A stretch of DNA of 64,000 nucleotides from an uncultured Staphylococcaceae bacterium (GTDB lineage Bacteria > Bacillota_I > Bacilli_A > ML615J-28 > CAG-313): the NCBI GenBank assembly GCA_964507405.1, contig CAZDPJ010000006.1, positions 1,020 through 65,019 of the forward strand, read 5' to 3'. Numbering within the stretch: position 1 is the first letter of the stretch; each line of letters opens with the position of its first letter. The notes under the pieces were generated by a model, which saw only the letters and a program-made list of their open reading frames with translations, did not search any database and was not told the DNA's origin. The position numbers and the translations under genes are program-made. Below are positions 8,616 to 38,078 of the stretch, piece by piece.

Positions 8616-8642
8616 ATATATCACCACTTATATTATATGTGG

Positions 8643-9482: not shown

Positions 9483-9598
9483 ATTAATTTACCTTTTATA
9501 TATATTCATTATAACACAAATAAAATAAAATAACAAGAAAAAATGTTTATACCACTTTCTTTTAATAAATATATAATAATATTTAAAAAAGAAGACTT

Positions 9599-10108
9599 TT
9601 ATTCAAAGTCCTCTTCTGTTAATTCATCTTCTTCTACTTCGTCTTTTTCATTTTCAACTTCTGTTAATTCTCTTTCTGTTTCAGCATCCATATTTTCAAA
9701 TTCGCGAGCGATATCATCATCTTCATCTTCGTCAACATCATCTTCATCGTCTTCGTCTTCATCATCTGAAACATAATCTTCGTCGTAGATTTCATCTTTT
9801 AACTCATTCTTCTTAACGTCTTCATCATCATAGTAGATTTCTTCATAATCACCACCATCTTTATCTAAGACAGCTGTTGATTGACGTTCTTTTAAATCCC
9901 AACAATCATCACCACAATATACAAAAATTCCAGATTGCATAAAATCTAATATAAATTGTGCTGAATGGTCTTTTATCATTTGACCTTTATAGCCTTTTAA
10001 TTCCATTACTTCTGCCATTATTGCTAGTATTTTTTGAGGTTTACGCTTTTTTTGTAAGAGTTCTACAGCAAGTTCTAATAATGATTTATCTTTGTCTTTA
10101 GCTCCCAT
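9599..10108 (-). CDS. rpoE: RNA polymerase delta subunit
   Basis: 169 aa. N-terminal HARE-HTH-like domain (LLELAVELL...FILDFMQSGIFVY...WDLKERQ) plus a long Asp/Glu tail. Confidence 0.85.
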   Translation of the reverse strand: MGAKDKDKSLLELAVELLQKKRKPQKILAIMAEVMELKGYKGQMIKDHSAQFILDFMQSGIFVYCGDDCWDLKERQSTAVLDKDGGDYEEIYYDDEDVKKNELKDEIYDEDYVSDDEDEDDEDDVDEDEDDDIAREFENMDAETERELTEVENEKDEVEEDELTEEDFE

Positions 10109-10189
10109 GGTTATCCTCCTATATATTCATTAACTTTTTGTATTATACTATATTTTATTTAAAAATGCAAATCATTATCATTTTTATTT

Positions 10190-10393
10190 TTATATTAATG
10201 TATAAATCATAATTCCAACAAGTCCTGGTATTCGTAAAATACCAACGATTAGTAATGTAAAGATATTAATTGGTATATTTAAATTAAAATATGAACCAAT
10301 AAAATTAAATATAAATAAAGTAACAATGCCTATTAATAATGATTTAATCATATATTTAAAAAAGTCTAACAAATGCTTTAAAAAAGTTTTCAT
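10190..10393 (-). CDS. bofA: BofA-family pro-sigma-K processing inhibitor
   Basis: 67 aa, two TM helices. NLNIPINIFTLLIVGILRIPGLVG matches the BofA signature (..PINL.T....G.LGIPG..). Confidence 0.7.
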   Translation of the reverse strand: MKTFLKHLLDFFKYMIKSLLIGIVTLFIFNFIGSYFNLNIPINIFTLLIVGILRIPGLVGIMIYTLI

Positions 10394-10431
10394 ATATCCC
10401 CCTTATTATTATATAATATGAGGGATTATTT

Positions 10432-11148
10432 TTATTTATGATATTTGTTATATATATCAACATCAGTCATATTAAATGTTAATGGTGTAATTGATATATA
10501 TTCTTGTTTTATTGTTTGAATGTCTCCATATTCATCATCTAATAATGGATTAAATTTATCACAAATAGAGTGATATAATCCATCATCCCTTTGTTCATAT
10601 CTTGTTATATAAGTACTTTTAGTTTGATGAGTTATCCTAATTCCTTTTGATATTTTTGGAAGATTAACATTTAATACAACTTTTTCATTCCACAAATTGC
10701 TATTTAAGATATAGTTCATAGCATCATCAAAATATTTACTTCCTTCAAAACTATCATATCTACATGATACAGCAATTGCTTTTTTACCTTTCATCAAGCC
10801 TTCCATCGCAGCCGCAACTGTTCCTGAATATACAATATCATCACCTAAATTATATCCTCTATTAATTCCTGATACTACAACATCAATATCAAGTTTTAAT
10901 TGATTTATCGCAAAAACAACACAATCAGATGGAGTTCCACTTAAACTATATGTTAAAACGCCGTCATATATATCTTCTAATTTTTCTAGTTTTAATCCTT
11001 CTTTTATTGTTAAGGCGTGACTATTAGCTGATTTTTCTATACTAGGTGCAACAACTACAATTTTTTTAGCATAAGGAATTAACTTTTCAACAAGTAATTT
11101 TATTCCTTCTGCTTTAACTCCATCATCATTGACAACAAGTATATTCAT
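10432..11148 (-). CDS. surE: 5'/3'-nucleotidase SurE
   Basis: 238 aa. MNILVVNDDG..., SGINRGYNLGDDIVYSGTVAAAMEG. Its start overlaps the upstream stop by 1 nt (TAATG). Confidence 0.9.
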   Translation of the reverse strand: MNILVVNDDGVKAEGIKLLVEKLIPYAKKIVVVAPSIEKSANSHALTIKEGLKLEKLEDIYDGVLTYSLSGTPSDCVVFAINQLKLDIDVVVSGINRGYNLGDDIVYSGTVAAAMEGLMKGKKAIAVSCRYDSFEGSKYFDDAMNYILNSNLWNEKVVLNVNLPKISKGIRITHQTKSTYITRYEQRDDGLYHSICDKFNPLLDDEYGDIQTIKQEYISITPLTFNMTDVDIYNKYHK

Positions 11149-12158
11149 TAAAATACCTCCGGATGTTCCATTTTATATTCTTTTAATAAAGTATCAAGTT
11201 CTTTTAATAAACTCTTCATTTCTTTTTTAGAATAAATTGTCGCACCGGCAGCTTGGAGATGGCCTCCACCACGATAGTGAGTTGCAACTTCATTAATAGA
11301 AATAAATCTAGATCTAAGTCTTACTCTTATTTCTTTATCTGGTGATTCATCTATATTTGCTATGTTGTCACTTTTTTCTAACATTTGATCAACAAACGCA
11401 ACCCATATAGGTGACCCTTTAATTGAGTCAAGGCAATTAACTAAGTTTGCTGCATCTTCTTTTGTTACATTATATTTTTGCATTATTTCTTTAGTGAAAT
11501 ATATATATACTACTCCACTAGGAGTTGTTTTAAAATGATTATAGACATATCCTTCTAGTTTTAAGGTTTCCATACTTTTAATATATAATGACGGATATAT
11601 ATCTTCAGTATCAACACCTTGGCTAAGAAGCCAACCAGCATTACTTAAAGTATTTTCATTAACACCTCGATATCTAAATCTACCAGTATCAGTTACAATA
11701 CCAAGATATAGTCTTTCAGCAATGTCTTTATTAACCTTTAATCCATACTTTTGCCATTCTTTAAACATTCCAGCAAGAATTGATGAACAAGCAGGAGATG
11801 TTGGATCAACATACATTAAATCTCCATATTCAGGGGAATCATCATGATGATCTATTTTAATTAAGAATTTACCACTATTATATCTACCATCACATATTCT
11901 AGCCATTACAGCAGTATCAACCACAATAACAAGTGCTTCATTATATATATCATCACTAATTTCATCACTACTTCCGCACATTGATAAATATTCAGGTACT
12001 TTATCACCAACAGCATAGACATGTTTGTTTGGAAAATTAAATTCTATATATTTTTTTAATGCAAATTGTGAACCAATACAATCTCCATCAGGTCTTATAT
12101 GACGATGAATAATGATTGTATCATATTTTTTTATTTGTTCTAAAATTTTATCAAACAT
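11148..12158 (-). CDS. DHH/DHHA1 phosphoesterase, NrnA-like (nanoRNase/pAp phosphatase), copy 2
   Basis: 336 aa. HRHIRPDGDCIGSQ, IDHHDD and GGGHLQAAG. Confidence 0.85.
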   Translation of the reverse strand: MFDKILEQIKKYDTIIIHRHIRPDGDCIGSQFALKKYIEFNFPNKHVYAVGDKVPEYLSMCGSSDEISDDIYNEALVIVVDTAVMARICDGRYNSGKFLIKIDHHDDSPEYGDLMYVDPTSPACSSILAGMFKEWQKYGLKVNKDIAERLYLGIVTDTGRFRYRGVNENTLSNAGWLLSQGVDTEDIYPSLYIKSMETLKLEGYVYNHFKTTPSGVVYIYFTKEIMQKYNVTKEDAANLVNCLDSIKGSPIWVAFVDQMLEKSDNIANIDESPDKEIRVRLRSRFISINEVATHYRGGGHLQAAGATIYSKKEMKSLLKELDTLLKEYKMEHPEVF

Positions 12159-12160
12159 CT

Positions 12161-13096
12161 TTATTCTCCTTTTGCTACTTTATTTAATTCATTTATTACT
12201 TTTTCAACATCACCTAGACTATCGATTGTACAACCACTAGCTTGTAAGTGACCACCACCACCAAACATCGTAGCAACTACATTGATATTTAATCCCGCTG
12301 ACCTAATTTCAACAAATACTTTACCATCTACATTTTCCGTAAAGTTAACCCAAATTTTTACTTCTTCTATTCCAGCCATAATGTTAACCATACCACGAGA
12401 TATATCAAATACAGTTGTATTATATTTAATTACATCTTCTTTTGTATTAATTAAATATGCAACACCATCACTTGTAATTTGAAATTTAGTTGTTAGATAT
12501 GCTCTTAGTTTTACAGTTTCTAGCTTTTCAGTATACAATTTATTATATATATATTCTGTATCAATATTATATTCAAGTAACTTACCAGCAATACTATAGG
12601 TTTTAGGTGTAGTACTAGAATATCTAAATCTACCACTATCAGTGACAATACCAGTAAATAAAAGAGAAGCTCCTTTTGTTGTTAGTTTCATTCCAGTATT
12701 AAAAATAAAATCACTAATAATTCCTGCACAACTTTCAAATGATGTATCAACAAAAGCTATATCACCATATTCACCTTGAGGTATATGATGATCAATTTTA
12801 ATTATTTTCTTGCCTTTTAAATATCTATCATCACTAATTAATTTATCTGTTCCACAGTCAACAACAATAACTAAAGCATCATTATATATATCATCACTAA
12901 TTTCATCCATATTTCCCATCCAAAAATAACGTTCTGAGCGGTCACCTACCACGAATACACGTTTATCTGGGAAAGTGGCTAGAATCGCTTCTTTTAGCCC
13001 CATTTGAGAACCTAATGCATCACCATCAGGTTTTGTATGTCTATGAATAATAATGGTATTATTGTTTTTAATTTCTTGATAAATAGTTTTATACAT
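12161..13096 (-). CDS. DHH/DHHA1 phosphoesterase, NrnA-like, copy 1
   Basis: 311 aa. HRHTKPDGDALGSQ, IDHHIP and GGGHLQASG. Clearly paralogous to the downstream gene. Confidence 0.85.
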   Translation of the reverse strand: MYKTIYQEIKNNNTIIIHRHTKPDGDALGSQMGLKEAILATFPDKRVFVVGDRSERYFWMGNMDEISDDIYNDALVIVVDCGTDKLISDDRYLKGKKIIKIDHHIPQGEYGDIAFVDTSFESCAGIISDFIFNTGMKLTTKGASLLFTGIVTDSGRFRYSSTTPKTYSIAGKLLEYNIDTEYIYNKLYTEKLETVKLRAYLTTKFQITSDGVAYLINTKEDVIKYNTTVFDISRGMVNIMAGIEEVKIWVNFTENVDGKVFVEIRSAGLNINVVATMFGGGGHLQASGCTIDSLGDVEKVINELNKVAKGE

Positions 13097-13220
13097 ATAT
13101 ATCTCCTTATAATTTATTTGATTAATCTCTATAAGGTATTATATCACATTATTTATTTTTTCTAAAGAAAAAGACTACTAAGAATAAAATCTTAATAGTC
13201 TTATTTATTTTTAAATTATA

Positions 13221-16200
13221 CTATTCAGCAAATGTAATAGTAATAGAAGTTACTCTCCATTGTTTATCATATGATAAAACAATTTCATCAGTACCAGTTT
13301 CACATGAAATAGTCCATGCTTTTCCTTCGTTTGAAACAGAAACATTTTTATCACTGCAGTTAATAACAGCATTCTTATCATGCACATCAGTAAATTCTAT
13401 TTTAGTAATTTTTTTACCATTTTTAGCAGTGATAGCGAATGAACTTCCTTGATATACTCTAAGTTGAGCTGCGCTTACATTAATATTTGTATTAGATTCT
13501 GCTTTATTAATTACAATTTCATAATCAGCATTTGCAGGAGCAATTACTAATGTATTACCATCTGTTGTATAAGTGTCTTTAACCCAAGTAAATACTACTT
13601 GATTAGCAGGAACAACCGTACCTTCAAGAACTTTTTCACCTAATTGAACTAACCAACCATTTTTAGTTTGTTTTGTTCCATTGTAATTTGAAAGAATACC
13701 ATAAATAACTACAGCATCACCAACTTTTGGTTTATCAGTTGTCATAGCATCAAAACGAACTTTACCATCTGCATTATATAATCCATATATTTTCCATATA
13801 TTACCAGCTACATCTTCAATATCCATATTTCCATAAGTATCATTTGTAATCTCCTTAACATAACCAGCTACATAATATTTTTCTGTTGTTGCATCATCTT
13901 TATTTGGAACAAGCGCACCAAGTTCTTCATAAGTTTTAACTTCGAAATCAGTTTCAATTTCTGTTTTAACAATTGGATCTGGATCTGGTTTAGGGTCAGG
14001 AGCTACTTCTTTAGATGCAGTATAGAAATGACCAACGAATGAAGTACTAGCATATTTAACATTGCTTCCGCTCATAGTTGTATAAGTATTATATGCACCT
14101 AAATAGTAAGTAGTAGTTCCATCACTTACTTGGTTAGTAACTGTAGTAACAATTGTATTATATTCACTATTCCATGTCCAAACATTTAATGGAGTTGTAC
14201 CTAATGAAAGTAGTGACGTATCTTTACCAGTGTTACTATTTGTTGAAGCTTCTAAATTAATATAAGTTTTTGTTTCACCATTTAAGAAATATACATGATA
14301 TCCACCTTCAACTTTTTCAACATAAAGTTTAGCAGCTTCATATCCATGTTCTGTAGTCTGATAGAAATTACCACTCATTTCACCAAGGAAATATAATCTA
14401 GCATTTTCTTTATTTTTTTGAATTAAAGAATAGTTATAAGCTACACCTTCTTTTAATTCAGTAATAATTGTATCATGACTTGGTTCAGGCATAACAACTT
14501 CTTCATCACCTACAAAGTATTCACCTTCACGGCCACTAAAGATTACACGAACATCACCAGAGAAATCAGCTTTTTGATTTCCATAGAAATAAACAAATAG
14601 AGTTACTCTTGTGTCAGTACCTGCAACAGCTGTAACAGCTTCAGGAACTGTTGAATAATATAAACTAATCTTCTTAGCATCTGCACTTTGAGATTCTGCT
14701 AAATAATAATAAGTAGTATCACCAGATGTATCAGCAACAACAACACCTTCAACCATTAAATATTGTCCGTAAGGAGCATTTTTAGATGTAGCAGCAACAA
14801 TTTCTGCGATTGTAGCTTCAGTAGGAACGCTCATATTCCAAGTTGCTTCTTCATGAGAAACATATTTAATAATAGAACCAATTTGAGGAGTACCATTGAA
14901 ATAATTAATTACACCAATAAATTCTACTTTATCACCAACGTTAACAGTTTTTTTAACATCACCAACTTTAATACCATCTTTCGTTCCAACATAAACTAAG
15001 ATATTTCCAGTTGCATCTTTTAAGTAATAGTTTTTATAACTACTAAATAATACATCAACTGTACCAGAAAGTTGAACAACGTCACCTTTTTCAAGTTTAA
15101 CAGCTTCATCAACTGTAGCAGTAGTTAATTTCTTAACAGTAATTTTAACTTCAACAACTTGAGTTAATTCACCAACAGTAACTGTTGCTTTGAAAGTAAC
15201 ATCAGTGTTGTTAGCTACTTCAGTAAATGCGTTATCAGCATAAGGAGCATCGCTAGGAATATCCCAAGCAATTGTTGCATCAACATCTTTGTTTTCAACA
15301 GGTAACACTAATTTAGAATAAGATGCATAAGAACCAGCTAATGCTTCAACTTCTTTAACAGCAATTGATAATTTATCTTCATCTGTTAATGTAGGAGCTT
15401 CAGCTTCTTCAATTCCACCATCCCATAATAAATGATTCTTTAAGATACGAGAGTCTCTATCATAAGTAACACCAGTAATAATAACATATTTACCAACATA
15501 TGATTTTAAGATTTCTTCTTGTGCAGTACTATAAGATTTGTAATAAACCCATGCAGTTTCGCCTGTATAAGGGTCAAGTAATTTATATTGATCTTTAGTT
15601 GTTTCATTATATTCAGATTCAACTTTAGCATATAATTTATAAAGGTCACCACCTAAATAACCAATAACGTTTTGAAGATTATCACCAGCACGTTCTTGTT
15701 CCCAAGCATCAATTGTTTTTTCTGTATATTCAGGAACTTCAATTCCACGGTCTTCAACAACTTTTACAGCAATATTGCTTCCAACTTGTAAACTTCCATA
15801 ATAAGAATAAATATCACCAGTAACATATACAGTATCACCAACTTTAACATCAGCACTCTTATAAACATAAATACCAGCAGTACCATCATGAACCATGAAT
15901 TGACCACTACCATCAGAATTTAATTTTGCTGTAACAACACCGTAGAATCCTACAGAATAAGTTGTATCACTTGCAGAAACTAATGCTTTATCAACTTTTT
16001 TCTCATTGTAAATATAATCGTAAGCATTTGCTTTTACTTCAGCAATTGTTCCAAAATCACCATCGAAACAAAGTACTGTAAATTCAAAATTCTTTGATTT
16101 TTTATATGAATCAGTCTTTTCTTCACCATTTGATTCATATGTATATTCAACTTCTGCAGTAGCAACTAGTTTAACAGGAACATGATAATAATCAACTTCT

Positions 16201-16535
16201 GTTGTACCAGTTTTATATACTGCTTCTGCTTTTTCATGACTAGGAGATGGTTGATTTACTTCACCAGTTGTAGAAATAACATCTGGTACACTACTAGACC
16301 ATTCAATACTAACACCAGCAACTGAAGATACAAGATTTAAATTATCTGTAATATTATCCATTGCTTCAGGTGCCCATAATAATTTCTTTAATGCAGTTTC
16401 AACTGTTTGTTTAGCTTCATCTCTTTTTTCTGTTTTATCAGATTGGCTATTGTTTTGACATCCAAATAAAACAAATACTAAGGCGATTAAAGCAACAAAG
16501 CTTAACATTTTTTTACCTAATTTGGTAATAGACAT
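13221..16535 (-). CDS. 1104-aa surface lipoprotein with Ig-like domains and at least four OB-fold-like segments
   Basis: Lipobox LFGC. Recurrent pattern G(D/N)xVxVxGxIxxYxGxxQ(I/V/T) at four places, e.g. VGDTVYVTGDIYSYYGSLQVGS, VGDKVEFIGVINYFNGTPQIGS, VGDAVVIYGILSNYNGTKQTKNG. The same pattern occurs in the adjacent nuclease. Confidence 0.7.
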   Translation of the reverse strand: MSITKLGKKMLSFVALIALVFVLFGCQNNSQSDKTEKRDEAKQTVETALKKLLWAPEAMDNITDNLNLVSSVAGVSIEWSSSVPDVISTTGEVNQPSPSHEKAEAVYKTGTTEVDYYHVPVKLVATAEVEYTYESNGEEKTDSYKKSKNFEFTVLCFDGDFGTIAEVKANAYDYIYNEKKVDKALVSASDTTYSVGFYGVVTAKLNSDGSGQFMVHDGTAGIYVYKSADVKVGDTVYVTGDIYSYYGSLQVGSNIAVKVVEDRGIEVPEYTEKTIDAWEQERAGDNLQNVIGYLGGDLYKLYAKVESEYNETTKDQYKLLDPYTGETAWVYYKSYSTAQEEILKSYVGKYVIITGVTYDRDSRILKNHLLWDGGIEEAEAPTLTDEDKLSIAVKEVEALAGSYASYSKLVLPVENKDVDATIAWDIPSDAPYADNAFTEVANNTDVTFKATVTVGELTQVVEVKITVKKLTTATVDEAVKLEKGDVVQLSGTVDVLFSSYKNYYLKDATGNILVYVGTKDGIKVGDVKKTVNVGDKVEFIGVINYFNGTPQIGSIIKYVSHEEATWNMSVPTEATIAEIVAATSKNAPYGQYLMVEGVVVADTSGDTTYYYLAESQSADAKKISLYYSTVPEAVTAVAGTDTRVTLFVYFYGNQKADFSGDVRVIFSGREGEYFVGDEEVVMPEPSHDTIITELKEGVAYNYSLIQKNKENARLYFLGEMSGNFYQTTEHGYEAAKLYVEKVEGGYHVYFLNGETKTYINLEASTNSNTGKDTSLLSLGTTPLNVWTWNSEYNTIVTTVTNQVSDGTTTYYLGAYNTYTTMSGSNVKYASTSFVGHFYTASKEVAPDPKPDPDPIVKTEIETDFEVKTYEELGALVPNKDDATTEKYYVAGYVKEITNDTYGNMDIEDVAGNIWKIYGLYNADGKVRFDAMTTDKPKVGDAVVIYGILSNYNGTKQTKNGWLVQLGEKVLEGTVVPANQVVFTWVKDTYTTDGNTLVIAPANADYEIVINKAESNTNINVSAAQLRVYQGSSFAITAKNGKKITKIEFTDVHDKNAVINCSDKNVSVSNEGKAWTISCETGTDEIVLSYDKQWRVTSITITFAE

Positions 16536-16596
16536 ACTTTTCTTTTCCTCCTATTGTATGTTTTATATATATTAATTTTAATAATTAATATCAATA

Positions 16597-18144
16597 CTAT
16601 TCATTAACTTCGTATTCAATGTCTTCCATACGAGTTAACATTAATTGTACGCTACCATCATGTTTTCCATTATCAGATGGATCATAGTAGCCAAGGACGC
16701 AAATTAAAGATTTAAATGTTTTACCTTTAAAATACTCACCTGTATCAATTCTGTTTCCATCAGGATCTAATAAAGTAATATTATTATCAATACGAATAGT
16801 AACAGTTTGTCTATGATTATCTACATCATAATATTCAGCAGTAAGAGTAGTTGCATTACTCTTATCATTCTTAGCATCATAATAACTAATAACCTTTAAT
16901 GGAGTAGTTACTTTAATAATATTTCCTAGATTATATACTTCATCTTCTAAATAATTCTTAAGGTCTTCAACTTCATTAATAACAATCTTATCACTATCAC
17001 CAAAGGATTGAACATTAGTATTACGTTGAGTAACACTAGATATTTGAAGAGAACCATTATAATATCCAATTGTTCCAGATACAATAACAGTATTTCCTAC
17101 AACTAACCTATTGTTTAAATTATAACCGCCATATAGATATACACCATATGTTTCAACTTTACCATTATCATCATATTCTGCAGTTTGTTGGATATAAGCA
17201 GAGTTAGCGCCTACCATTCTTGTGATAACGCCACTTACACGTACTTTTTTACCAACATCTTTTGAATTTAATATTGCTTCTGTTGTACCATAATTTTCAT
17301 GTAGTTCTTTTAATGACATATCTGTATAAGATGTTGAATAATCATAATCAGGGTCTTTTTCACCATAAATTCTTACCTTTGCTTGTAACGCAGGAGTTAA
17401 AGCAGAAGTAAATTCTTTGCTTAATGTAGTATCACTAGCTTTACTATTAGCAAGAGCTAGTTCAACAAGTTCTAAATTTAATAATCTACCATCAACCCAA
17501 ACCCAAGCAAGATATCTATTTCCTGTTGTATCAACATTGTCTTTACCAGGTTTTCCATTATCTGTTTGTAATACTATTGTTTTAGCATTTTTTAAAGCTT
17601 CTTTTGTGTGTTTTGATGCAGCAAATCCCCAAGGTTCAACTTTATATGTAGATTCTGGAGTATCAATACCTTCATAACGAATTGTTATAGCTTGATTGCC
17701 ACATTTAAAAATTGTTGTATCACCGTCAACATATTGTTGAACAGTAACTTCACCAATACCATCTTCTAAGAAATTTTTACCTTCATAGGTTTCTGTTAAT
17801 TCAATAGAATCAGTTACTGGAGTATTATAATTAAATACTTGTTTTACTTGATAATGAGCAACTAATGTTACATCACTATTTGTATCAGCGGAAATAGATG
17901 TTACTTTTTTATCATCTATATACCAACCAATAAAAGAATGTCCTTCTTTTGTTGCAGCAGGAAGGGTATCAATACCCTTTCCTTGTTCAAATTTTTCTGT
18001 ATAAATAGATTCACCATTTACAGTTCCACCGTCAGCATCAAATGTTGCGGTATAAGTTGTAGTTGTTGTTACACAACTTGTTATTGCAAATAAAAATGCA
18101 ACAACTAAAAATAGACTTAATATTTTCTTTTTCATTTTAATCAC
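16597..18144 (-). CDS. surface lipoprotein nuclease: Listeria-Bacteroides (Flg_new) repeat + staphylococcal-nuclease (SNase) domain + OB-fold-like domain
   Basis: 515 aa. Lipobox ITSC. KEGHSFIGWY repeat. SNase core GDTTIF...IRYEGIDTPES...FAASKHTKEAL...NRYLAWVWVDGRLLNLELVELALA. C-terminal VGNTVIVSGTIGYYNGSLQISS. The start could instead be the ATG at 18135. Confidence 0.85.
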   Translation of the reverse strand: MIKMKKKILSLFLVVAFLFAITSCVTTTTTYTATFDADGGTVNGESIYTEKFEQGKGIDTLPAATKEGHSFIGWYIDDKKVTSISADTNSDVTLVAHYQVKQVFNYNTPVTDSIELTETYEGKNFLEDGIGEVTVQQYVDGDTTIFKCGNQAITIRYEGIDTPESTYKVEPWGFAASKHTKEALKNAKTIVLQTDNGKPGKDNVDTTGNRYLAWVWVDGRLLNLELVELALANSKASDTTLSKEFTSALTPALQAKVRIYGEKDPDYDYSTSYTDMSLKELHENYGTTEAILNSKDVGKKVRVSGVITRMVGANSAYIQQTAEYDDNGKVETYGVYLYGGYNLNNRLVVGNTVIVSGTIGYYNGSLQISSVTQRNTNVQSFGDSDKIVINEVEDLKNYLEDEVYNLGNIIKVTTPLKVISYYDAKNDKSNATTLTAEYYDVDNHRQTVTIRIDNNITLLDPDGNRIDTGEYFKGKTFKSLICVLGYYDPSDNGKHDGSVQLMLTRMEDIEYEVNE

Positions 18145-18154
18145 GAGTTTATAC

Positions 18155-19597
18155 TTATTTTAATGCATTTTTAACTGCTTGATAAGCAACATTAATTTCA
18201 GTATTACTATATAAAACTTGTTGTACTAAAGTTTCAACTTCATCACGAGCTTTACTTGAACCATAGAATGCAACGTTTGTATAGAACCAATCTTGTTGTT
18301 CTAGACCAACTTTTTGAGCTTTATTTTGAAGAGTAGGACGATAAACAATTTGTCCTTGTTCATCTCTCATCTTACCAGAAATGTGTTCTTGATATTCATT
18401 TGAATTTAATACGTCTTTTCTAATTGGGAAATAAGAAGTTTCAGTACACCATAATAATGCTGATTCATAGTTAGTTAAATACTTCATAAATAACCAACCA
18501 GCAAGTTCTTCTTGAGCATCTGCACACTTAAATAATGAAACGTTTGTACCTTGTTGAATAACTTGAGGATTATTTACATCTTTTTGAGGATAAGGAGCAA
18601 CACCAACTTCAAATGAGTTATCAGTAGGTTGGTTGTAACTTGCACCCGCACTTGAACCTAATGTCATAACGATTTGACCAGCTTTAAATGCATCTGAAGA
18701 ATAGTTAGTACCAAAGTAAGAAGTAGTTACTAGATTACCTTGATCAAATTGGTTTTTATACCAAGAAACAGCAGATTTAGATTCTTCACTAGTTAAGAAT
18801 GCATATTGACCATTGCCTTTAGAATCGAACTTAGTATATTCGCCACCCCATTGTTGAGTGAAAGTGATAAATAAGTTACTTTCAGAGTCATATGAGAAAC
18901 CAGCAACTTTTTTGTTATCGCTCTTTAATTTACTATATTCAGTAGTAGTTTTAAATTTTTCAGCAACTTCAGCTACATCATCCCATGTTTGAGGAACTTC
19001 CCAATTATATTTATCAAACATAGTTTTGTTATAGTATAAAACTTCTGTTGATTTATTGAATGGAAGACTATACATTGTTCCAACCGAGTCATAGATTGTA
19101 CCTTCAGCATAGAAACCATCGATATATTGATTACGTTCTTCTTTTGATAAACCAATGATATCTTCAGTACCATCAGAAAGAGTAACTAGTTTTGTAGATT
19201 CAATATATGAATTTAATTCTCTAACAACATCACCATTTAAGTATAATGCAACATGGTCAGGATATGTTTGAGCAAGTGTTGGTAATTCTTCAGCTGCAAC
19301 ACCATTAGAGATTGTATCTCTTAATGTATCATAATCACCAAGTGATGTTTGAACAACTGTTATATTTGGATATGCTTCTTGAAAGTTTTCAATGATTTGA
19401 GCAATAATATCTTGATTAGCTTTACCCATTGCGTGCCAGAAATTTACTGTAATATCTTTTGTTGTGTCTAATTCAGGAACGTCAACGATAACGATGTCAG
19501 TTGGACCTTTTTTACCGCCATCGTCTTCATTGCCACCGCAGCTAACGATTACGAATAAAGAAGCTACAACAACTAATAAACTTAAAAATTTTTTCAT
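18155..19597 (-). CDS. ABC transporter substrate-binding lipoprotein (family-1 / CUT1-like)
   Basis: 480 aa. Lipobox IVSCGG. General SBP family-1 look (FWHAMG...LPTLAQTYPDH...). Confidence 0.8.
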   Translation of the reverse strand: MKKFLSLLVVVASLFVIVSCGGNEDDGGKKGPTDIVIVDVPELDTTKDITVNFWHAMGKANQDIIAQIIENFQEAYPNITVVQTSLGDYDTLRDTISNGVAAEELPTLAQTYPDHVALYLNGDVVRELNSYIESTKLVTLSDGTEDIIGLSKEERNQYIDGFYAEGTIYDSVGTMYSLPFNKSTEVLYYNKTMFDKYNWEVPQTWDDVAEVAEKFKTTTEYSKLKSDNKKVAGFSYDSESNLFITFTQQWGGEYTKFDSKGNGQYAFLTSEESKSAVSWYKNQFDQGNLVTTSYFGTNYSSDAFKAGQIVMTLGSSAGASYNQPTDNSFEVGVAPYPQKDVNNPQVIQQGTNVSLFKCADAQEELAGWLFMKYLTNYESALLWCTETSYFPIRKDVLNSNEYQEHISGKMRDEQGQIVYRPTLQNKAQKVGLEQQDWFYTNVAFYGSSKARDEVETLVQQVLYSNTEINVAYQAVKNALK

Positions 19598-19643
19598 TTT
19601 CTTCTCCTTTTTTTTTTATATTTTTGCTAAACTACGTTTAGTT

Positions 19644-20675
19644 TTAGCCTTTAATACCACTACGTGATACTCCACGCATAATATATTTACGTAAGAATAT
19701 AAACACTAGTAGTAATGGTAAGGTAACAACTGTTGTTGCTGCCATTTGAAGACCTTGGGCTGTTCTACCTTCAGAGTCTGAGAAGGAAGATCTTAAACCC
19801 GTTGTGATTAATCTCATGTTTGCATCACGAGTAACCATCATAGGCCATACATATGCGTTCCAAGAACCCATAAGTTTTAAAATAGTAATTGTAATAATTG
19901 TAGGCATTGCAATTGGAACCATGATTTTAATTAAATATTTGAAATCACTTGTTCCATCTACTTTTGCCGCATAATATAATTCATTTGGTATTTGTTTGAA
20001 GTTTTGTCTTAATAAGTAAATATAATATACACTAATTAAGAATGGGACAATCATTGCCCAATATGTATCAATACCGCTTGTACCAAATATTGATTTAGCA
20101 GTTTTAGTTACAGTAATATAGTTTGTAATAACCATCATTTCACCAGGAATCATCATAGTTGCAAGGAAAACAGTAAATATAAGTTCACGCCCTTTAAACT
20201 TGATTCTTGAAAAAGCAAAGGCTGCCATAACAGTTGTTACAACTGTACCTATAGTAGAAAATACACCAACAACAATTGTATTAAATATCAATCTTCCAGC
20301 ATTTAATCTTTCGATTGCTTGTGGATAGTTTGATAATGCAAGTTCATATTTACCAAATCCAGGGAAGAATGTTGGAGTAGGTAAATCAATTTCTGCAGCT
20401 GTCTTAAGTGATGTTGCAATCATCCAGTAGAACGGAACAATCATACAGAATGCCATGAAGACTAAGAATGTATAAGAAATAATATTTTTAATTATTCTAA
20501 ATACTCTTTCTCTTCTGATTACTTCTTTCGCTGTATCACCAACAACAGCAAGTTTATTTTCAGGAATATGATCAATTAATCTACGTTTATACTTAGAAGG
20601 TTTCTTTTCAACAAATCTAAGCGATAAATATAATATTAGAAGTACAAGGCAAACGCCTAAAACAAATATATACAT
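19644..20675 (-). CDS. ABC transporter permease (MalG/UgpE-like) with an extra N-terminal TM
   Basis: 343 aa, multi-TM. EAA-like loop YYAAKVDGTSDFKYLIKIMVPIAMP. Confidence 0.85.
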   Translation of the reverse strand: MYIFVLGVCLVLLILYLSLRFVEKKPSKYKRRLIDHIPENKLAVVGDTAKEVIRRERVFRIIKNIISYTFLVFMAFCMIVPFYWMIATSLKTAAEIDLPTPTFFPGFGKYELALSNYPQAIERLNAGRLIFNTIVVGVFSTIGTVVTTVMAAFAFSRIKFKGRELIFTVFLATMMIPGEMMVITNYITVTKTAKSIFGTSGIDTYWAMIVPFLISVYYIYLLRQNFKQIPNELYYAAKVDGTSDFKYLIKIMVPIAMPTIITITILKLMGSWNAYVWPMMVTRDANMRLITTGLRSSFSDSEGRTAQGLQMAATTVVTLPLLLVFIFLRKYIMRGVSRSGIKG

Positions 20676-20689
20676 ACGTTTTTTACCTC

Positions 20690-21652
20690 CTAATAGAATA
20701 TTTTCTTGCTACTTACATATTTGTTAATAGCAGTAAATATCATAATAATTATAAACAAGACAACAGCACCAGCTGATGCAGCACCAGCATCGCCACCTTC
20801 TTTAAGTTTATCATATATATACCATACAACCGTTGCCATATTATGACGTTGACCAACACTTTGTGCTTTGTCACCAAAAATCGCAACAACTGATGTATAT
20901 TCTTTAAACGCACCGATAAGTGAGGTAATAAGTAAGTAGAATATTTGAGGAGATAATAGTGGAACTGTTACCTTCATAAATGTTCTCATCTTAGATGTAC
21001 CATCAATTTGAGCTGCTTGATAATATTGTTTATCAACACTTTGTAATGCACTTAATAAAATTAATACCTTAAATGGTAATGAATTCCAAACGATATAAAT
21101 TAGAAGTACAATTAATGATGTAAAATATTGGCTGTTAAACACAGCATTGCCGGAAGCAAAACCAAAGAGCCATTGGTTATCCAAGTTACCACCAAGCCAG
21201 TTTACACCTTTTCCGCCAAAGAAAGTAATGATTGTGTTTATTAAACCTTGATTACTTTCAAACATAACTGAGAATACCATACCGATAGCAATAGTATTTG
21301 TTACATATGGTAAGAAAAATATTGTTTGGAACACTTTTTGTAAACCTTTAATAGAGTTTAACGCAACTGCTATTAAAAGTGAAAATAGAATTGATAGAGG
21401 AACGGAAACAAAAACTATAATCATTGTGTTTATTAAATATTGCATAAAAGAATTATCTGGATCTAAAACTAATTGGTAATTCTTTAAACCAAAACCAGAA
21501 TAAGCTCCAGTCATATAGTTATAATCCTCTTTGAATGAAATAATAAACGTATTAATTAGAGGGTAAAAAGTAAAGATACCTAATAATACTAAAGCAGGTA
21601 ATAAGTACAAAATACCTCTAATAAAGTTGGTACTTGCTTTTCCTTCAACCAT
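20690..21652 (-). CDS. ABC transporter permease (MalF/UgpA-like)
   Basis: 320 aa, multi-TM. YYQAAQIDGTSKMRTFMKVTVPLLSP. Confidence 0.85.
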   Translation of the reverse strand: MVEGKASTNFIRGILYLLPALVLLGIFTFYPLINTFIISFKEDYNYMTGAYSGFGLKNYQLVLDPDNSFMQYLINTMIIVFVSVPLSILFSLLIAVALNSIKGLQKVFQTIFFLPYVTNTIAIGMVFSVMFESNQGLINTIITFFGGKGVNWLGGNLDNQWLFGFASGNAVFNSQYFTSLIVLLIYIVWNSLPFKVLILLSALQSVDKQYYQAAQIDGTSKMRTFMKVTVPLLSPQIFYLLITSLIGAFKEYTSVVAIFGDKAQSVGQRHNMATVVWYIYDKLKEGGDAGAASAGAVVLFIIIMIFTAINKYVSSKKIFY

Positions 21653-21653
21653 A

Positions 21654-22715
21654 CTATTTAATTCTCTCTTCTGTTACTTTGTCAAATACAAAGTATTTGT
21701 TAGGTTTTACTACAGCTTTTGATATTGTTCCTTCTTCTAATTTAACACTTGAATCAACGATGAAACGGAATGTCTCTTTTTCTGAGTTAGGGTTTACACC
21801 ATTTACAAGTTTATCACGACCGATATATTCGATATGTTCAATGCCAATCGATAGAGGGCCTTCTGGATTAATTTCAAATCCTTCAGGTCTAATGCCTACT
21901 GTAACTTCTTGATCAGGAAGTTCAGCTTCACCTATTTTTTCTTTGCCGATATAAATGCCATTATCATGAATAACACCATTAAAAATATTAATAGGTGGAG
22001 TTCCTAAGAATTTAGCAACAAATTGATTTGTAGGGTTTTCATACACATTTTGAGGTGCACCTTTTTGTTGCATTACACCAAACTTCATAACAACTATTTC
22101 ATCCGAAATACTCATCGCTTCTTCTTGGTCATGTGTAACGAAAATTGTTGTAATACCCGTTTCTCTTTGAATTCTCTTAATTTCTTCACGAGTTTGAAGT
22201 CTTAGACGAGCATCTAGATTTGATAGTGGTTCATCTAGTAATAACACTCTTGGTTCTTTTACTAAAGCTCTAGCTATTGCGACACGTTGTTGTTGACCAC
22301 CTGATAATTGACGAGGCTTACGGTTTAATAATTCTTCAATACCAACAAGACGAGCATACTTTTGTGTTCTTGCTAAAGCCTCTGCTTTAGTTAGTTTCAT
22401 ATTTTGTAAAGGGAACATTATGTTTTGCTTTACAGTCATATGAGGGTAAAGGGCATAGTTTTGGAAAACTAGACCAATTCCTCTTTTTTCAGCAGGAAGT
22501 GCAGTTACATCTTCATCACCGAAAAAAATATGGCCCGAAGATGGTTCTAGCAATCCAGCAATCATATACAATGTTGTTGATTTACCACATCCTGACGGAC
22601 CAAGCAAACCAATAAGACGACCAGAAGGGATGACGATATCTAAGTCATCTACGGCTCTTACTTCTGAGTTCTTATCGGCAAATATTTTTGTTAAATGAGA
22701 CAAGCGAATATCCAT
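21654..22715 (-). CDS. ABC transporter ATP-binding protein (MalK/UgpC/MsmX type)
   Basis: 353 aa. GPSGCGKST, LSGGQQQRVAIARAL, LLLDEPLSNLD, and a C-terminal TOBE-like region. Confidence 0.92.
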   Translation of the reverse strand: MDIRLSHLTKIFADKNSEVRAVDDLDIVIPSGRLIGLLGPSGCGKSTTLYMIAGLLEPSSGHIFFGDEDVTALPAEKRGIGLVFQNYALYPHMTVKQNIMFPLQNMKLTKAEALARTQKYARLVGIEELLNRKPRQLSGGQQQRVAIARALVKEPRVLLLDEPLSNLDARLRLQTREEIKRIQRETGITTIFVTHDQEEAMSISDEIVVMKFGVMQQKGAPQNVYENPTNQFVAKFLGTPPINIFNGVIHDNGIYIGKEKIGEAELPDQEVTVGIRPEGFEINPEGPLSIGIEHIEYIGRDKLVNGVNPNSEKETFRFIVDSSVKLEEGTISKAVVKPNKYFVFDKVTEERIK

Positions 22716-22779
22716 AATAAAAATCCTCCTCGTTTGACATTATTTGTCTTTTTTTATTGAGTTTACTATCTCTGTACTT

Positions 22780-22808
22780 ATTATACCATATACTCTATTC
22801 TTTTTCAA
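22780..22808 (-). promoter_or_regulatory. putative sigma-A promoter of the ABC/nuclease operon (TTGAAA-17-TGgTATAAT)
   Basis: -10 reverse complement at 22780-22785, -35 reverse complement at 22803-22808, extended -10 TG. Confidence 0.55.
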
Positions 22809-22925
22809 AAGAATTGAATAATTTATTTTAAAATTCGACAAATTCAATTAAACTTCATAAAAAAAGTTGTAAGCATTTTTACTCACAACTTAATTTTTTT
22901 GTTTGATTTACTTAATAAATATTTC

Positions 22926-23522
22926 CTATTTTGTTTTTCTTCCTTCAATAGCATACTTAAGAGTCATAGCATCTACATACTCTAAGTCACCACCAGCGGG
23001 TAGTCCATATCCAATGCGAGATATTTTAAGTCCATCTCTCGCTAGAATTTTCTCTAAATATAAGGCAGTTGTTTCACCATTCATTGTGAAGCTTGTTGCT
23101 AAAATAATTTCCTTTACATTTGGATTAAGTCTTGCATTTAAACTATCTATATTTAAAGCATCAGGACCAACTCCATCAAGTGGTGAAATGAGACCACCTA
23201 GTATATGATATAATCCATTATATTGACCGGTCTTTTCGATTGCTAAAACATCTTTTGCATCCTTTACTACCATGATTTGTTCTTGACTACGATATGTATT
23301 TTCACATATTTCACACAAATCATTTAGAGTATACATTCCACATACTTTGCATTTTTTTACTTGCTTTTTTGTTTCAATTAATACTCTAGCAAATCTTTCA
23401 ACTTCCTCATTAGACATTTTTTCGATAACTTGGAAAGCATATCTTGATGCTGTTTTTTTTCCAACACTTGGTAACTTTTCAAAACAAGCTGAAAGATTAT
23501 CTAAAAATTTAAAATCATCCAT
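22926..23522 (-). CDS. recR: recombination protein RecR
   Basis: 198 aa. Zn finger CKVCGMYTLNDLCEIC and Toprim region. Confidence 0.95.
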   Translation of the reverse strand: MDDFKFLDNLSACFEKLPSVGKKTASRYAFQVIEKMSNEEVERFARVLIETKKQVKKCKVCGMYTLNDLCEICENTYRSQEQIMVVKDAKDVLAIEKTGQYNGLYHILGGLISPLDGVGPDALNIDSLNARLNPNVKEIILATSFTMNGETTALYLEKILARDGLKISRIGYGLPAGGDLEYVDAMTLKYAIEGRKTK

Positions 23523-23821
23523 TAAAACATTCCACCAGTATAGGCTTTATATTTAGAAAGTTTTTCTTCTGTATATGAAGCTATTTCTTCATTTGCTTTA
23601 TGGCTCGCTGCAACAAAAGAATCTTCTAATAATTCTAAATCATCAGGTGTAGTAACTTCAAAATCTTTATCAATAGTAACATTTTTTACTTCATGTGTGC
23701 CATACATTACGATTGTAACTGGTCCACTAGTTACTGTGAATTCACTTTCTTCTATTTCCTTTTGGGCTTTTTCAATATCCCTTTGCATTTGTTGTAATTT
23801 ACGAATCATTTGTGGATTCAT
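23522..23821 (-). CDS. ybaB: nucleoid-associated protein YbaB/EbfC
   Basis: 99 aa. NPQMIRKLQQMQRDIEKAQKEIEE.... Sits in the dnaX-ybaB-recR synteny. Confidence 0.9.
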   Translation of the reverse strand: MNPQMIRKLQQMQRDIEKAQKEIEESEFTVTSGPVTIVMYGTHEVKNVTIDKDFEVTTPDDLELLEDSFVAASHKANEEIASYTEEKLSKYKAYTGGMF

Positions 23822-38005: not shown

Positions 38006-38008
38006 AAG

Positions 38009-38066: not shown

Positions 38067-38078
38067 AGGGAGGATTTT

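Follow-up and report, generated by a model that had tools for sequence, protein, structure and literature searches.

A candidate nucleic-acid utilization locus with a U3GBP-like substrate-binding lipoprotein in an uncultured gut bacterium

Genes and transcription signals of the locus

Nine minus-strand ORFs make up a locus in the window, the 64,000-nucleotide stretch of DNA that was analyzed. ORF coordinates and domain searches bore out the composition, order, and strand given in an earlier note on this DNA gene for gene, all at the coordinates that it had listed (Table 1). The first transcription unit is a six-gene operon (22715-13221) encoding an ABC ATPase, two CUT1 permeases, a substrate-binding protein (SBP), an SNase lipoprotein, and a 1104-residue multi-OB lipoprotein. 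Its successive genes are separated by 1, 14, 46, 10, and 61 bp, in agreement with the gaps of 1-61 bp noted earlier. The second unit, nrnA-nrnA-surE, follows the operon terminator and has its own promoter.

The operon promoter was the top match of a 14-kb scan (9400-23600) and coincides with the one noted earlier at 22780-22808. The ATG follows ~65 nt downstream, preceded by a GGAGG ribosome-binding site. Promoter-like matches were not more common in the scan than by chance (74 versus 87 in shuffles), so the evidence for this promoter is its position and not the match count. The terminator stem at 13202-13171 confirms a hairpin previously placed at about 13172-13205, and directly after it sits the second promoter (13166-13138), which is absent from the earlier note. 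The DHH, DHHA1, and SurE domains of the next three products confirm the two NrnA-like genes and SurE reported after this terminator. At the other end, a hairpin at 22891-22864, just 3' of recR (22926-23522), closes the upstream ybaB-recR unit. All three surface proteins (SBP, SNase, and OB lipoproteins) have a lipobox with its Cys, which is invariant within the families at C20 of the SBP and C26 of the OB protein.

Table 1. Features of the locus, in window coordinates.
Feature	Start	End	Strand	Evidence
SurE 5'/3'-nucleotidase, 238 aa	10432	11148	-	Pfam SurE 8.5e-51; TIGR00087 171.8 bits (cut-off 135.1)
NrnA-like DHH/DHHA1 phosphoesterase, paralogue 2, 336 aa	11148	12158	-	NCBIfam NrnA 234.9 bits (cut-off 350)
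NrnA-like DHH/DHHA1 phosphoesterase, paralogue 1, 311 aa	12161	13096	-	NCBIfam NrnA 260 bits (cut-off 350)
nrnA-nrnA-surE promoter	13138	13166	-	TTTAGA, 17 nt, TG-n-TATAAT; 10/12 match + extended -10 TG
Terminator-like hairpin ending the six-gene operon	13171	13202	-	13-bp stem, T tract, -15.5 kcal/mol, z = -4.4
Multi-OB lipoprotein, 1104 aa	13221	16535	-	aBig_2/Ig-like domains, ~five OB-fold domains, two beta-sandwich domains
Surface nuclease lipoprotein, 512-515 aa	16597	18144	-	Flg_new repeat, SNase domain, C-terminal OB-like region
Substrate-binding lipoprotein, U3GBP-like, 480 aa	18155	19597	-	SBP_bac_8 + SBP_bac_1
CUT1 permease 2, UgpE/MalG-like, 343 aa	19644	20675	-	BPD_transp_1 1.3e-17; best NCBIfam UgpE, below cut-off
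CUT1 permease 1, UgpA/MalF-like, 320 aa	20690	21652	-	BPD_transp_1 5e-15; best NCBIfam UgpA, below cut-off
ABC ATPase, UgpC/MalK type, 353 aa	21654	22715	-	ABC_tran 1.2e-36; best NCBIfam UgpC, 351.8 bits (cut-off 432)
Six-gene operon promoter	22780	22808	-	TTGAAA, 17 nt, TG-n-TATAAT; 11/12 match + extended -10 TG
Terminator-like hairpin closing the ybaB-recR unit	22864	22891	-	12-bp stem, then T run

The C-terminal OB_MalK and CysA_C matches of the ATPase are weak. The best PDB match of both NrnA paralogues is B. subtilis NrnA (7e-64 for paralogue 1, which has the DHH and GGGH motifs, and 4e-68 for paralogue 2). NrnA and SurE also have housekeeping functions in nanoRNA, pAp, and c-di-AMP turnover, and these roles, together with the separate promoter, qualify the place of the nrnA-nrnA-surE products in any pathway with the operon. 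Substrates of NrnA homologues include short oligonucleotides, RNA as well as DNA, and pAp (PMC9779919). NMPs or nucleosides rescue the knock-out of the tandem DHH paralogues in M. bovis (PMC7373297).

The substrate-binding lipoprotein and its pocket

The earlier note proposed inspecting the SBP pocket in a predicted structure and comparing it with characterized SBPs. The AF2 model has a pLDDT of 93, and its nearest solved relative is the dinucleotide binder U3GBP of T. thermophilus, ahead of UgpB. To our knowledge, U3GBP is the only dinucleotide-binding ABC substrate-binding protein with a solved structure. It took all of the top 25 Foldseek places (E 1e-25, TM 0.83), and the next matches were Mtb UgpB-GPC (4.5e-23) and E. 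coli UgpB (3e-22), so that its structural lead over the UgpB/GPC binders is small. U3GBP (7C0F series) was also the best PDB sequence match (1.9e-22 versus 1.5e-15 for UgpB) and led the profile search (111.9 bits, 2.6e-31 versus 91.6 bits, 3.7e-25 for UgpB), at an identity of only ~20%. Relative to U3GBP, the window SBP has an insertion at ~135-172 and a C-terminal extension, and its length is greater by 70-80 residues. The 7C0F entry is a U3G-binding protein (PMC12718374 Table S5).

PDB titles name eight mutagenized U3GBP ligand residues, Y56, F79, N81, S127, Y224, T240, Y246, and Q274. The window SBP has the same residue or a conservative substitution at all eight positions, namely Y89, Y112, D114, S183, Y299, S315, Y321, and Q349; the Y224 equivalent depends on the alignment, being Y294 by HMMER and Y299 by MAFFT. 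The eight positions are kept in at least 72 of 79 SBP family members (most of them in 77-78), including relatives as distant as 33% identity. The corresponding residues of E. coli UgpB are Y, Y, V, S, E, S, A, and G, of which only the phosphate-binding subset is common to both proteins; the four U3GBP-specific residues kept in the window SBP are missing. The phosphate-coordinating set of the window SBP (Y89, S183, S315, Y389, R451) is near-invariant in the family and common to U3GBP and E. coli UgpB (Y42, S121, S247, Y323, R374). The W169/W172 glycerol clamp of UgpB is replaced by S/N in the window SBP and is missing from U3GBP as well.

The U3GBP ligand is reportedly an endogenous molecule that co-purified with the protein, and the U3GBP operon of Thermus and Meiothermus, unlike the window locus, lacks neighboring nuclease and Nrn genes; its own physiological substrate is therefore uncertain. 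The pocket homology suggests that the window SBP binds dinucleotides or other phosphorylated nucleic-acid fragments. The new element of this analysis is a specific substrate prediction, dinucleotides or short phosphorylated fragments and not nucleosides.

The surface nuclease and the multi-OB lipoprotein

The surface nuclease lipoprotein belongs to the SNase family (SNase domain 35.6 bits, cut-off 21; Flg_new 48.5 bits; Pfam), and its best PDB sequence match is S. aureus nuclease (2.4e-09). An independent gene call on an identical contig starts the protein 3 codons later, at 512 aa. The window protein has the complete catalytic and Ca2+ set D21/R35/D40/T41/E43/R87, as do 83 related domains; this supports the cleavage step of the earlier note and points to a probable nuclease. 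The C-terminal part has the OB motif GxIxYYNGxxQI and matches tRNA_anti-codon weakly. Pfam searches gave no mycoplasma lipoprotein family match for either the SNase or the OB lipoprotein.

The multi-OB lipoprotein was modeled with AF2 at a pLDDT of 86. Foldseek returned p204/IFI16/AIM2 HIN-dsDNA, the Oxytricha telomere protein, RADX-ssDNA, YgiW, and the LysRS OB domain, and the best matches are tandem-OB complexes with DNA. Homologues carry the OB Pfam families PF01336, PF16100, PF13742, and PF04076. Relatives also carry lamin-tail domains, as do extra SNase proteins of the same loci; such domains are typical of extracellular nucleases. The mature protein has a pI of 4.6 and a net charge of -60, and each of its domains is acidic. 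Such acidity is not usual in proteins that bind nucleic acids non-specifically. It is matched by the SNase domain and the SBP, and may therefore be a trait of the surface proteome of the organism.

The proposal of the earlier note that the OB folds bind DNA or RNA stands as far as the fold resembles tandem-OB DNA binders; the strong acidity and the presence of non-OB beta-sandwich domains count against it. Carbohydrate-binding modules had been named as the competing identity of these segments, and glycosidase accessory domains (GH43, sialidase) were indeed matched by Foldseek at 1e-5 to 1e-4, behind the tandem-OB complexes with DNA. We judge it unlikely that the protein is an adhesin, glycan binder, or scaffold, which would leave a pathway of SNase, ABC, and Nrn proteins alone. 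The acidity, the glycosidase matches, and a Pfam search that returned aBig_2 and only a sub-threshold tRNA_anti-codon OB match (25.5 versus 27) favor such a role, as do the aBig_2/Ig-like domains, which are typical of adhesins, and a Turicibacter locus that works without this protein. Set against them are the tandem-OB/DNA matches, the OB families of the homologues, the lamin-tail domains, the OB motif shared with the SNase protein, the adjacency of the OB-lipoprotein and SNase genes in almost every locus, and the equal acidity of the neighboring proteins. The multi-OB lipoprotein is thus the putative nucleic-acid capture protein and the weakest link of the pathway.

Conserved neighborhood, proposed pathway, and related systems

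Gene adjacency in relatives had been named beforehand as a refutation test, and co-occurrence statistics as a check. An SBP-anchored scan gave 80 species-representative loci, with denominators that differ per feature, and included loci of the same gene order in Izemoplasmatales and related Mycoplasmatota genomes. The permeases lie 5' of the SBP in 70/73 loci, an SNase and/or OB lipoprotein lies 3' of it in 71/74, and Nrn genes are found ≤13 kb away in 41/46. The order persists in relatives whose SBP identity is as low as 33%, also where the recR flank is absent, and 12 of 16 loci lacking that flank still have Nrn genes. In a Turicibacter MAG, the ATPase, two permease, SBP, Nrn, and SurE genes are contiguous, which supports the intracellular finishing step of the earlier note. 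Because every relative that has the locus comes from a single broad clade, common descent could account for part of the synteny.

We consider it fairly probable that the two adjacent transcription units are a nucleic-acid utilization locus of a low-G+C gut bacterium related to Bacilli/Mycoplasmatota, serving import of dinucleotides or short fragments and their cytoplasmic finishing. The multi-OB lipoprotein would tether DNA or RNA from outside the cell to the membrane, and the SNase lipoprotein would cut the polymer to mono-, di-, and short oligonucleotides that, by SNase chemistry, should carry 3'-phosphates. Dinucleotides, or phosphorylated fragments of similar size, would be bound by the SBP, whose pocket combines the phosphate-coordinating Tyr/Ser/Arg of UgpB and U3GBP with the extra Tyr/Tyr/Gln/Asn(Asp) of U3GBP, and passed to the CUT1 permease pair and UgpC-type ATPase. 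In the cytoplasm, the NrnA paralogues may convert 2-5-mers to mononucleotides and remove the 3'-phosphates, as characterized NrnA does on pAp, and SurE may convert 3'/5'-NMPs to nucleosides for salvage or catabolism. Independent computational evidence from sequences and models thus favors each step of the bind-cut-import-finish scheme in the earlier note, binding least.

Two other readings of the transporter are both improbable. Were nucleic acid broken down completely outside the cell, the ABC system could import nucleosides or nucleobases, with NrnA and SurE serving only internal RNA turnover. The housekeeping roles of these enzymes would fit, SNase also releases mononucleotides, and transporters of the homologous type are termed 'probable nucleoside or nucleobase transporters' from gene neighborhood in PMC8289736. 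However, domain searches of its ORFs found no surface nucleotidase or phosphatase encoded in the locus, the SBP keeps the full phosphate-coordinating set, and Nrn/SurE genes are linked to the ABC genes in 41/46 loci, directly so in the Turicibacter operon. Characterized nucleoside ABC importers use an SBP of another family. On the second reading, the ABC system imports glycerophosphodiesters or G3P in the manner of Ugp, or else sugars, its usual annotation, and the neighboring nuclease would serve phosphate scavenging, biofilm, or virulence only. UgpB/A/E/C are the best NCBIfam names of the ABC genes, but the scores are far under the cut-offs (UgpB 68.8 versus 411). The UgpB structures are the next-best matches of the SBP, and GPC-type ligand binding is compatible with the missing Trp clamp; the four U3GBP-specific pocket residues argue the other way, as does the nuclease, OB, and Nrn neighborhood in nearly all relatives. 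A GDPD phosphodiesterase gene is present in the window (48903-49664), but ~26 kb off on the other replichore.

The novelty implied in the earlier note is reduced, since nucleic-acid scavenging is already published for homologous or analogous loci of Izemoplasmatales (2021), Hujiaoplasma (2023), and mycoplasmas. Its statement that the substrate of the nuclease-linked ABC family is not established agrees with the literature found, which gave no demonstrated imported substrate for related loci. The closest published loci are the 'DNA-degradation loci' of Izemoplasmatales (Wasmund et al. 2021, PMC8289736), among them that of X. coldseepsis zrk13 (PMC8397711), and a Hujiaoplasma nucleasis zrk29 locus with an extracellular nuclease, YbaB, RecR, ABC transporters, and NrnA (PMC10470597). 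Induction by DNA and RNA was shown experimentally in zrk13 and zrk29 (PMC8397711, PMC10470597), up to ~27-fold in the latter. With gene-for-gene equivalence drawn from the published gene lists, the loci resemble the window in having ABC genes, '3'-5' nucleases'/NrnA, extracellular nucleases, and a large surface protein for nucleic-acid binding, and zrk29 also lists the YbaB and RecR encoded 5' of the window operon. The window locus, from an uncultured gut bacterium, lacks their lamin-tail domains, extra PASTA-LTD-SNase protein, EddB, and phosphate transporters, and adds SurE. Nucleoside or nucleobase import is conjectured in these papers, whose text contains no SBP pocket analysis.

In mycoplasmas, a bind-cut-import model was already proposed for the MslA/P81-SNase lipoprotein-ABC 'putative nucleotide transporter operon' (PMC4045577). 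Its members (MGA_0674-0679, MBOVPG45_0307-0311, mhp379, MG186-189/MPN133-136) likewise place a surface SNase-type lipoprotein gene next to CUT1-like ABC genes and a polynucleotide-binding lipoprotein, and by its numbering NrnA (MPN140) would lie within a few locus tags of MPN133-136. They lack a recognized UgpB-type SBP, and MslA, compared by description, is not known as an OB protein. E. coli UgpBAEC, the sn-glycerol-3-phosphate importer, has the same set of SBP, two permeases, and UgpC-type ATPase; the window system differs in lacking the Trp169/Trp172 clamp, in scoring far under all the NCBIfam Ugp equivalog cut-offs, and in its gene neighborhood. B. subtilis YhcR is wall-anchored and degrades extracellular nucleic acid with OB folds, SNase, and 5'-nucleotidase in one protein. 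In contrast, the window splits such modules over two lipoproteins, has no surface 5'-nucleotidase, and couples the genes to an importer and cytoplasmic finishing enzymes.

Organization of the locus

All nine minus-strand ORFs that the earlier note had described between 22808 and 10432 are present, with domain assignments by Pfam and NCBIfam, and the operon promoter and post-operon terminator hairpin claimed with them were both recovered. The coordinates and supporting matches are collected in the table. The first six genes encode an ABC ATPase, two permeases, a substrate-binding lipoprotein (SBP; 480 aa), a staphylococcal nuclease-type (SNase) lipoprotein, and a large lipoprotein with multiple OB folds (OB lipoprotein). 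They are separated by gaps of 1, 14, 46, 10, and 61 bp, and the ABC genes lie 1–46 bp apart. The operon promoter is located just past the terminator that ends the ybaB-recR unit. A second promoter directly follows the terminator downstream of the OB lipoprotein gene, so the locus consists of two adjacent units, the six-gene operon (unit 1) and nrnA-nrnA-surE (unit 2). Promoter-like matches across the region were not in excess over shuffled sequences (74 vs 87), and their count therefore carries no evidential weight. Rfam did not detect a riboswitch or leader in the operon 5' region. The ATPase, two permeases, and family-1 SBP encoded together place the transporter among the CUT1-type importers (TC 3.A.1.1). 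Each of the three extracytoplasmic proteins has an N-terminal signal peptide followed by a lipobox cysteine, which is invariant across the SBP and OB-protein families.

Genes and signals of the proposed scavenging locus (window positions)
Feature	Position	Strand	Evidence
UgpC/MalK-type ABC ATPase	21654-22715	-	Pfam ABC_tran 1.2e-36; UgpC = best NCBIfam match
BPD_transp_1 permease 1	20690-21652	-	UgpA = best NCBIfam match
BPD_transp_1 permease 2	19644-20675	-	UgpE = best NCBIfam match
Family-1 (cluster D) solute-binding protein (SBP)	18155-19597	-	SBP_bac_8 5.4e-41
SNase lipoprotein	16597-18144	-	Flg_new repeat + SNase domain (Pfam)
OB lipoprotein, 1104 aa	13221-16535	-	aBig_2; tRNA_anti-codon (OB) 25.5, just under 27 threshold
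DHH/DHHA1 paralogue 1	12161-13096	-	Pfam/NCBIfam
DHH/DHHA1 paralogue 2	11148-12158	-	Pfam/NCBIfam
SurE	10432-11148	-	TIGR00087 171.8 bits vs 135.1 cut-off; Pfam SurE 8.5e-51
Operon promoter	22808-22780	-	11/12 match, extended -10; top match of 14-kb scan
Terminator, 13-bp hairpin + T tract	13202-13171	-	-15.5 kcal/mol, z = -4.4; 3' of 1104-aa gene
Unit 2 promoter, extended -10	13166-13138	-	Directly after 13202-13171 terminator

The binding protein, its predicted ligand, and the surface proteins

The usual annotation of this SBP and transporter family is a sugar or glycerol-3-phosphate (G3P) transporter. The nucleic-acid proposal of the earlier note depended on the SBP not grouping with oligosaccharide or G3P binders, and by sequence, profile, and fold its closest relative is the Thermus thermophilus dinucleotide-binding protein (U3GBP). 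A search of PDB sequences ranked the T. thermophilus 7C0F series first (1.9e-22) and the G3P-binding protein UgpB next (1.5e-15), with sugar binders far behind. The profile of a 41-sequence SBP family keeps this ranking (111.9 bits for U3GBP vs 91.6 for UgpB). The AlphaFold model of the SBP has a pLDDT of 93, and its top 25 Foldseek matches are all U3GBP (E 1e-25, TM 0.83), followed by M. tuberculosis UgpB with glycerophosphocholine, E. coli UgpB, and then maltose-type binders. Identity between the SBP and U3GBP is only about 20%, and the lead over the UgpB and glycerophosphocholine binders is modest. The PDB titles describe the Thermus protein as an ABC-transporter dinucleotide-binding protein with endogenously bound uridylyl-3'-5'-phospho-guanosine, and 7C0F is listed as a U3G-binding protein (PMC12718374). 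No nuclease or Nrn genes lie near the U3GBP gene in Thermus and Meiothermus, and its co-purified dinucleotide may not be its physiological ligand.

The U3GBP ligand residues were read from the PDB entry titles and from the sequences of the depositors' point mutants as Y56, F79, N81, S127, Y224, T240, Y246, and Q274. The SBP equivalents from HMMER and MAFFT alignments are, in the same order, Y89, Y112, D114, S183, Y299, S315, Y321, and Q349, with HMMER placing Y294 instead of Y299 opposite Y224. Five of the eight residues are the same in both proteins, and the other three differ conservatively (F to Y, N to D, and T to S). Within the 41-sequence family these residues vary little or not at all, and their near-invariance extends to 79 SBP genes of species-representative genomes with identities down to 33%. 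E. coli UgpB has Y, Y, V, S, E, S, A, and G at the eight positions, and only the phosphate-binding subset is common. The UgpB glycerol clamp, W169/W172, is absent from the SBP, which has S238/N241 at these positions, near-invariant in the family. The SBP scores 68.8 bits against the NCBIfam UgpB equivalog cut-off of 411. The conserved pocket and the missing clamp argue against an oligosaccharide or G3P binder. From the aligned residues, the pocket looks like one that would hold a phosphodiester flanked by nucleosides. The predicted substrates are dinucleotides or short phosphorylated fragments rather than nucleosides, sugars, or G3P. We found no paper that identifies the substrate of these transporters or ties these SBPs to U3GBP. 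A glycerophosphodiester importer is a minor alternative that draws on the resemblance of the SBP to UgpB and, weakly, on a gene for a GDPD glycerophosphodiester phosphodiesterase in the window (48903-49664, +); this gene, however, is unlinked to the ABC operon.

The SNase domain scores 35.6 bits against the Pfam cut-off of 21. Its Ca2+ ligands (D21, D40, and T41) and catalytic residues (R35, E43, and R87) are all intact in the window protein and in 83 related domains; Y85, Y113, and Y115 are not conserved. The C-terminal half of the SNase protein shares a GxIxYYNGxxQI OB motif with the OB lipoprotein. Some close SBP homologues (P0017, P0027, and P0036) are fused to Flg_new, the Listeria-Bacteroides repeat that is also present at the N terminus of the window SNase lipoprotein.

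The multi-OB-fold architecture proposed for the 1104-aa lipoprotein is borne out by its AF2 model (pLDDT 86), which consists of aBig_2, an Ig-like domain, about five five-stranded OB barrels, and two beta-sandwiches. The best Foldseek matches are tandem-OB DNA binders (p204 HINab-dsDNA, the IFI16 and AIM2 HIN domains, the Oxytricha telomere protein, and RADX-ssDNA); YgiW, the LysRS OB domain, and glycosidase accessory domains also match. Whole-protein TM scores are low because the protein is multi-domain. Comparison with PDB chain sequences returned nothing meaningful (best E-value 0.85). We detected 152 homologues, and among the 120 of these listed, many carry PF01336, PF16100, PF13742, and PF04076; none of the 120 has a name, MslA/P81 included. 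The mature protein is acidic in every domain (pI 4.6, net charge -60), which counts against simple DNA binding, and nucleic-acid capture is therefore only a proposed role. Acidity may be a trait of the organism's surface proteins, since it is just as marked in the SNase domain and the SBP.

Related loci, proposed finishing enzymes, and the overall reading

The SBP profile, run against one genome per GTDB species, identified 80 loci with 33–71% identity. Their hosts are uncultured gut 'Bacilli'/'Mollicutes' MAGs, Anaeroplasma, Acholeplasmataceae, Mariniplasma, Izemoplasmatales, Haloplasmataceae, and Turicibacter. ORFs were labeled using HMMs derived from the window proteins, and only loci with enough flank were counted. 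Of 73 loci, 70 have permeases upstream of the SBP, and an SNase and/or OB lipoprotein is encoded downstream of it in 71/74. Nrn genes occur within 13 kb in 41 of 46 loci, and SurE is present in 23 of 46. The gene adjacency on which the earlier proposal rested is thus conserved in relatives. The ybaB-recR pair is upstream in only 32/62 loci, and 12 of the 16 loci without the pair keep Nrn, so the cluster outlasts its flank. Four of the five Nrn-less loci are long clusters, and the fetched flank may have ended before their Nrn genes. The fifth (L009) and another locus (L023) contain second-copy SBPs in genomes that also have a canonical locus (L005, L010). These SBPs are longer, adjoin 740-840-aa ABC ATPases, have no nuclease or OB neighbors, and may be the source of the few pocket-position outliers.

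The related loci also carry further genes. Acholeplasma/Izemoplasma-type loci (L040, L067, L072, L081, and similar) have an extra lipoprotein of ~490 aa with PASTA, lamin-tail, and SNase domains, and the Nrn pair is separated from it by a conserved protein of ~275 aa that has hydrophobic stretches at both termini. In these loci, the large lipoprotein contains 4-6 aBig_2 domains; three of the four scanned also have 1-2 lamin-tail domains. In one gut subgroup (L002, 16678-17127; L003, L010, L012, and L021), a gene for a ~149-aa lipoprotein follows the OB lipoprotein gene and precedes the Nrn pair; the window has no such gene.

To our knowledge, nuclease-linked ABC operons have been labeled 'putative nucleotide transporters' for more than 10 years, and the mycoplasma operons have no recognizable, tractable binding protein. 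In M. genitalium, MG190 (mgpA, a DHH protein) presumably follows MG189 directly. The MBOVPG45_0307-0311 genes were termed 'a putative nucleotide transporter operon', and this mycoplasma MslA-nuclease-ABC operon resembles the window in having an SNase lipoprotein gene beside CUT1-like ABC genes (PMC4045577). The idea of binding, cutting, and import has already been put forward for mycoplasmas (PMC4045577; review PMC12115388). In this model, MslA would pass polynucleotides to the nuclease, and the products would then enter through the ABC transporter. Wasmund et al. (PMC8289736) describe 'conspicuous genomic loci' in Izemoplasmatales, state that SBP homologues elsewhere adjoin nucleases too, and offer 'nucleoside or nucleobase transporters' as a guess. 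Zheng et al. (PMC8397711) showed that DNA up-regulates such a locus in X. coldseepsis. The Hujiaoplasma nucleasis locus comprises genes for an extracellular nuclease, a nucleoid-associated protein, RecR, ABC transporters, and NrnA, and DNA plus RNA induces it by as much as about 27-fold (PMC10470597); its gene list agrees with the ybaB-recR-...-ABC-...-NrnA arrangement of the window. The window locus is a gut-bacterial addition to a kind of locus already recognized in related lineages.

The best solved relative of both DHH paralogues in unit 2 is B. subtilis NrnA (7e-64 and 4e-68). Both keep the DHH and GGGH motifs and the DHH and DHHA1 domains, and their NCBIfam NrnA scores of 260 and 235 are under the 350 cut-off. 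SurE exceeds its equivalog cut-off. SNase products carry 3'-phosphates, so a pAp-type 3'-phosphatase and a 3'/5'-nucleotidase (SurE) would be the activities needed. The NrnA homologues of B. subtilis, T. thermophilus, and M. pneumoniae act on oligonucleotides under about 6 nt, cleaving both RNA and DNA, and also remove the 3'-phosphate of pAp (PMC9779919). Both enzymes of the M. bovis tandem pair Mbov_0328/0327 act on nanoRNA, and one of them also acts on cyclic dinucleotides (PMC7373297). By analogy, one window paralogue could be a DhhP/PdeM-type c-di-NMP phosphodiesterase.

In cell culture, under conditions where extracellular DNA is a limiting nutrient, M. bovis requires this pair, but added NMPs or nucleosides relieve the requirement (PMC7373297). 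By analogy, this rescue would fit an Nrn role in processing imported fragments. It agrees equally with the main rival for unit 2, in which NrnA and SurE serve purely internal recycling, a reading that fits equally well. Against recycling stands a locus in the Turicibacter sp. UBA7094 MAG (L083, 1-5705), where contiguous ATPase-permease-permease-SBP-Nrn-SurE genes run from the importer directly into the Nrn and SurE genes. This compact operon has no surface nuclease or OB lipoprotein gene, and it ties the importer directly to the finishing enzymes. A DNA-uptake (competence) function was dropped because the locus has no ComEA/ComEC-type genes.

Scavenging of nucleic acids by capture, cutting, import, and finishing is the best-supported reading overall and probably the correct one. 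Import of intact di- or oligonucleotides specifically is a more tentative proposition, with a chance somewhat short of even. Similarly guarded is a joint reading, which we put slightly on the doubtful side. The SBP family and CUT1 transporter would act together as a dedicated importer that takes up intact dinucleotides or short oligonucleotides, perhaps the 3'-phosphorylated SNase products, and the NrnA pair and SurE would be obligatory cytoplasmic finishers of this cargo and not mere housekeeping enzymes. Nutritional ABC uptake of oligonucleotides would then be the ancestral nucleotide-precursor route in these reduced-genome bacteria and, by descent, in mycoplasmas. If true, the widespread 'sugar/G3P transporter' annotation would be corrected, and the conditional essentiality of NrnA-type enzymes when extracellular DNA is the nucleotide source would be accounted for. 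The question bears on nucleotide-precursor uptake in wall-less, genome-reduced Bacilli, including pathogenic mycoplasmas, and on abundant uncultured gut lineages that appear equipped to feed on extracellular nucleic acids. Together with its roughly 80 relatives, the locus provides a soluble SBP with the UgpB fold and a pocket that matches that of the only known dinucleotide-binding SBP. The advance here is a concrete prediction of the substrate; a soluble protein is at hand for it, as are several cultured carriers, such as Acholeplasma equifetale ATCC 29724 (L072), strains zrk2/zrk29, WC44, and MO-XQ, and Turicibacter.

Other features of the window

The replication-origin neighborhood spans 36623-46769. 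It includes dnaA (36623-38005, checked by Pfam) and, by position only, dnaN (374-aa ORF, 38079-39203) and gyrB/gyrA (641- and 891-aa ORFs, 42152-46769). GC skew, scanned over 1-64000, changes sign at about 36 kb. The proposed scavenging locus is 14-26 kb away from dnaA and is transcribed in the direction of replication. Upstream of ybaB-recR is a 1023-aa ORF (23825-26896, -) whose 1017-aa counterpart in L002 has DnaX-type Pfam matches; this ORF is far longer than a typical bacterial DnaX. A Na+/Pi cotransporter gene (27052-27996, +) is unlinked to the ABC operon. The sole Pfam match of a 1064-aa ORF (2380-5574, -) is a C-terminal DUF6273. The window contains no tRNA genes, and its sole Rfam match is a T-box leader (46837-47042, +; 128.7 bits) directly 5' of the seryl-tRNA synthetase gene (47100-48410). 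A YabG-type peptidase U57 is encoded at 7845-8627 (-; 1.1e-67). YabG is a sporulation protease in Bacillus, which suggests that the host is a spore-former or descends from one rather than being a classical mollicute.
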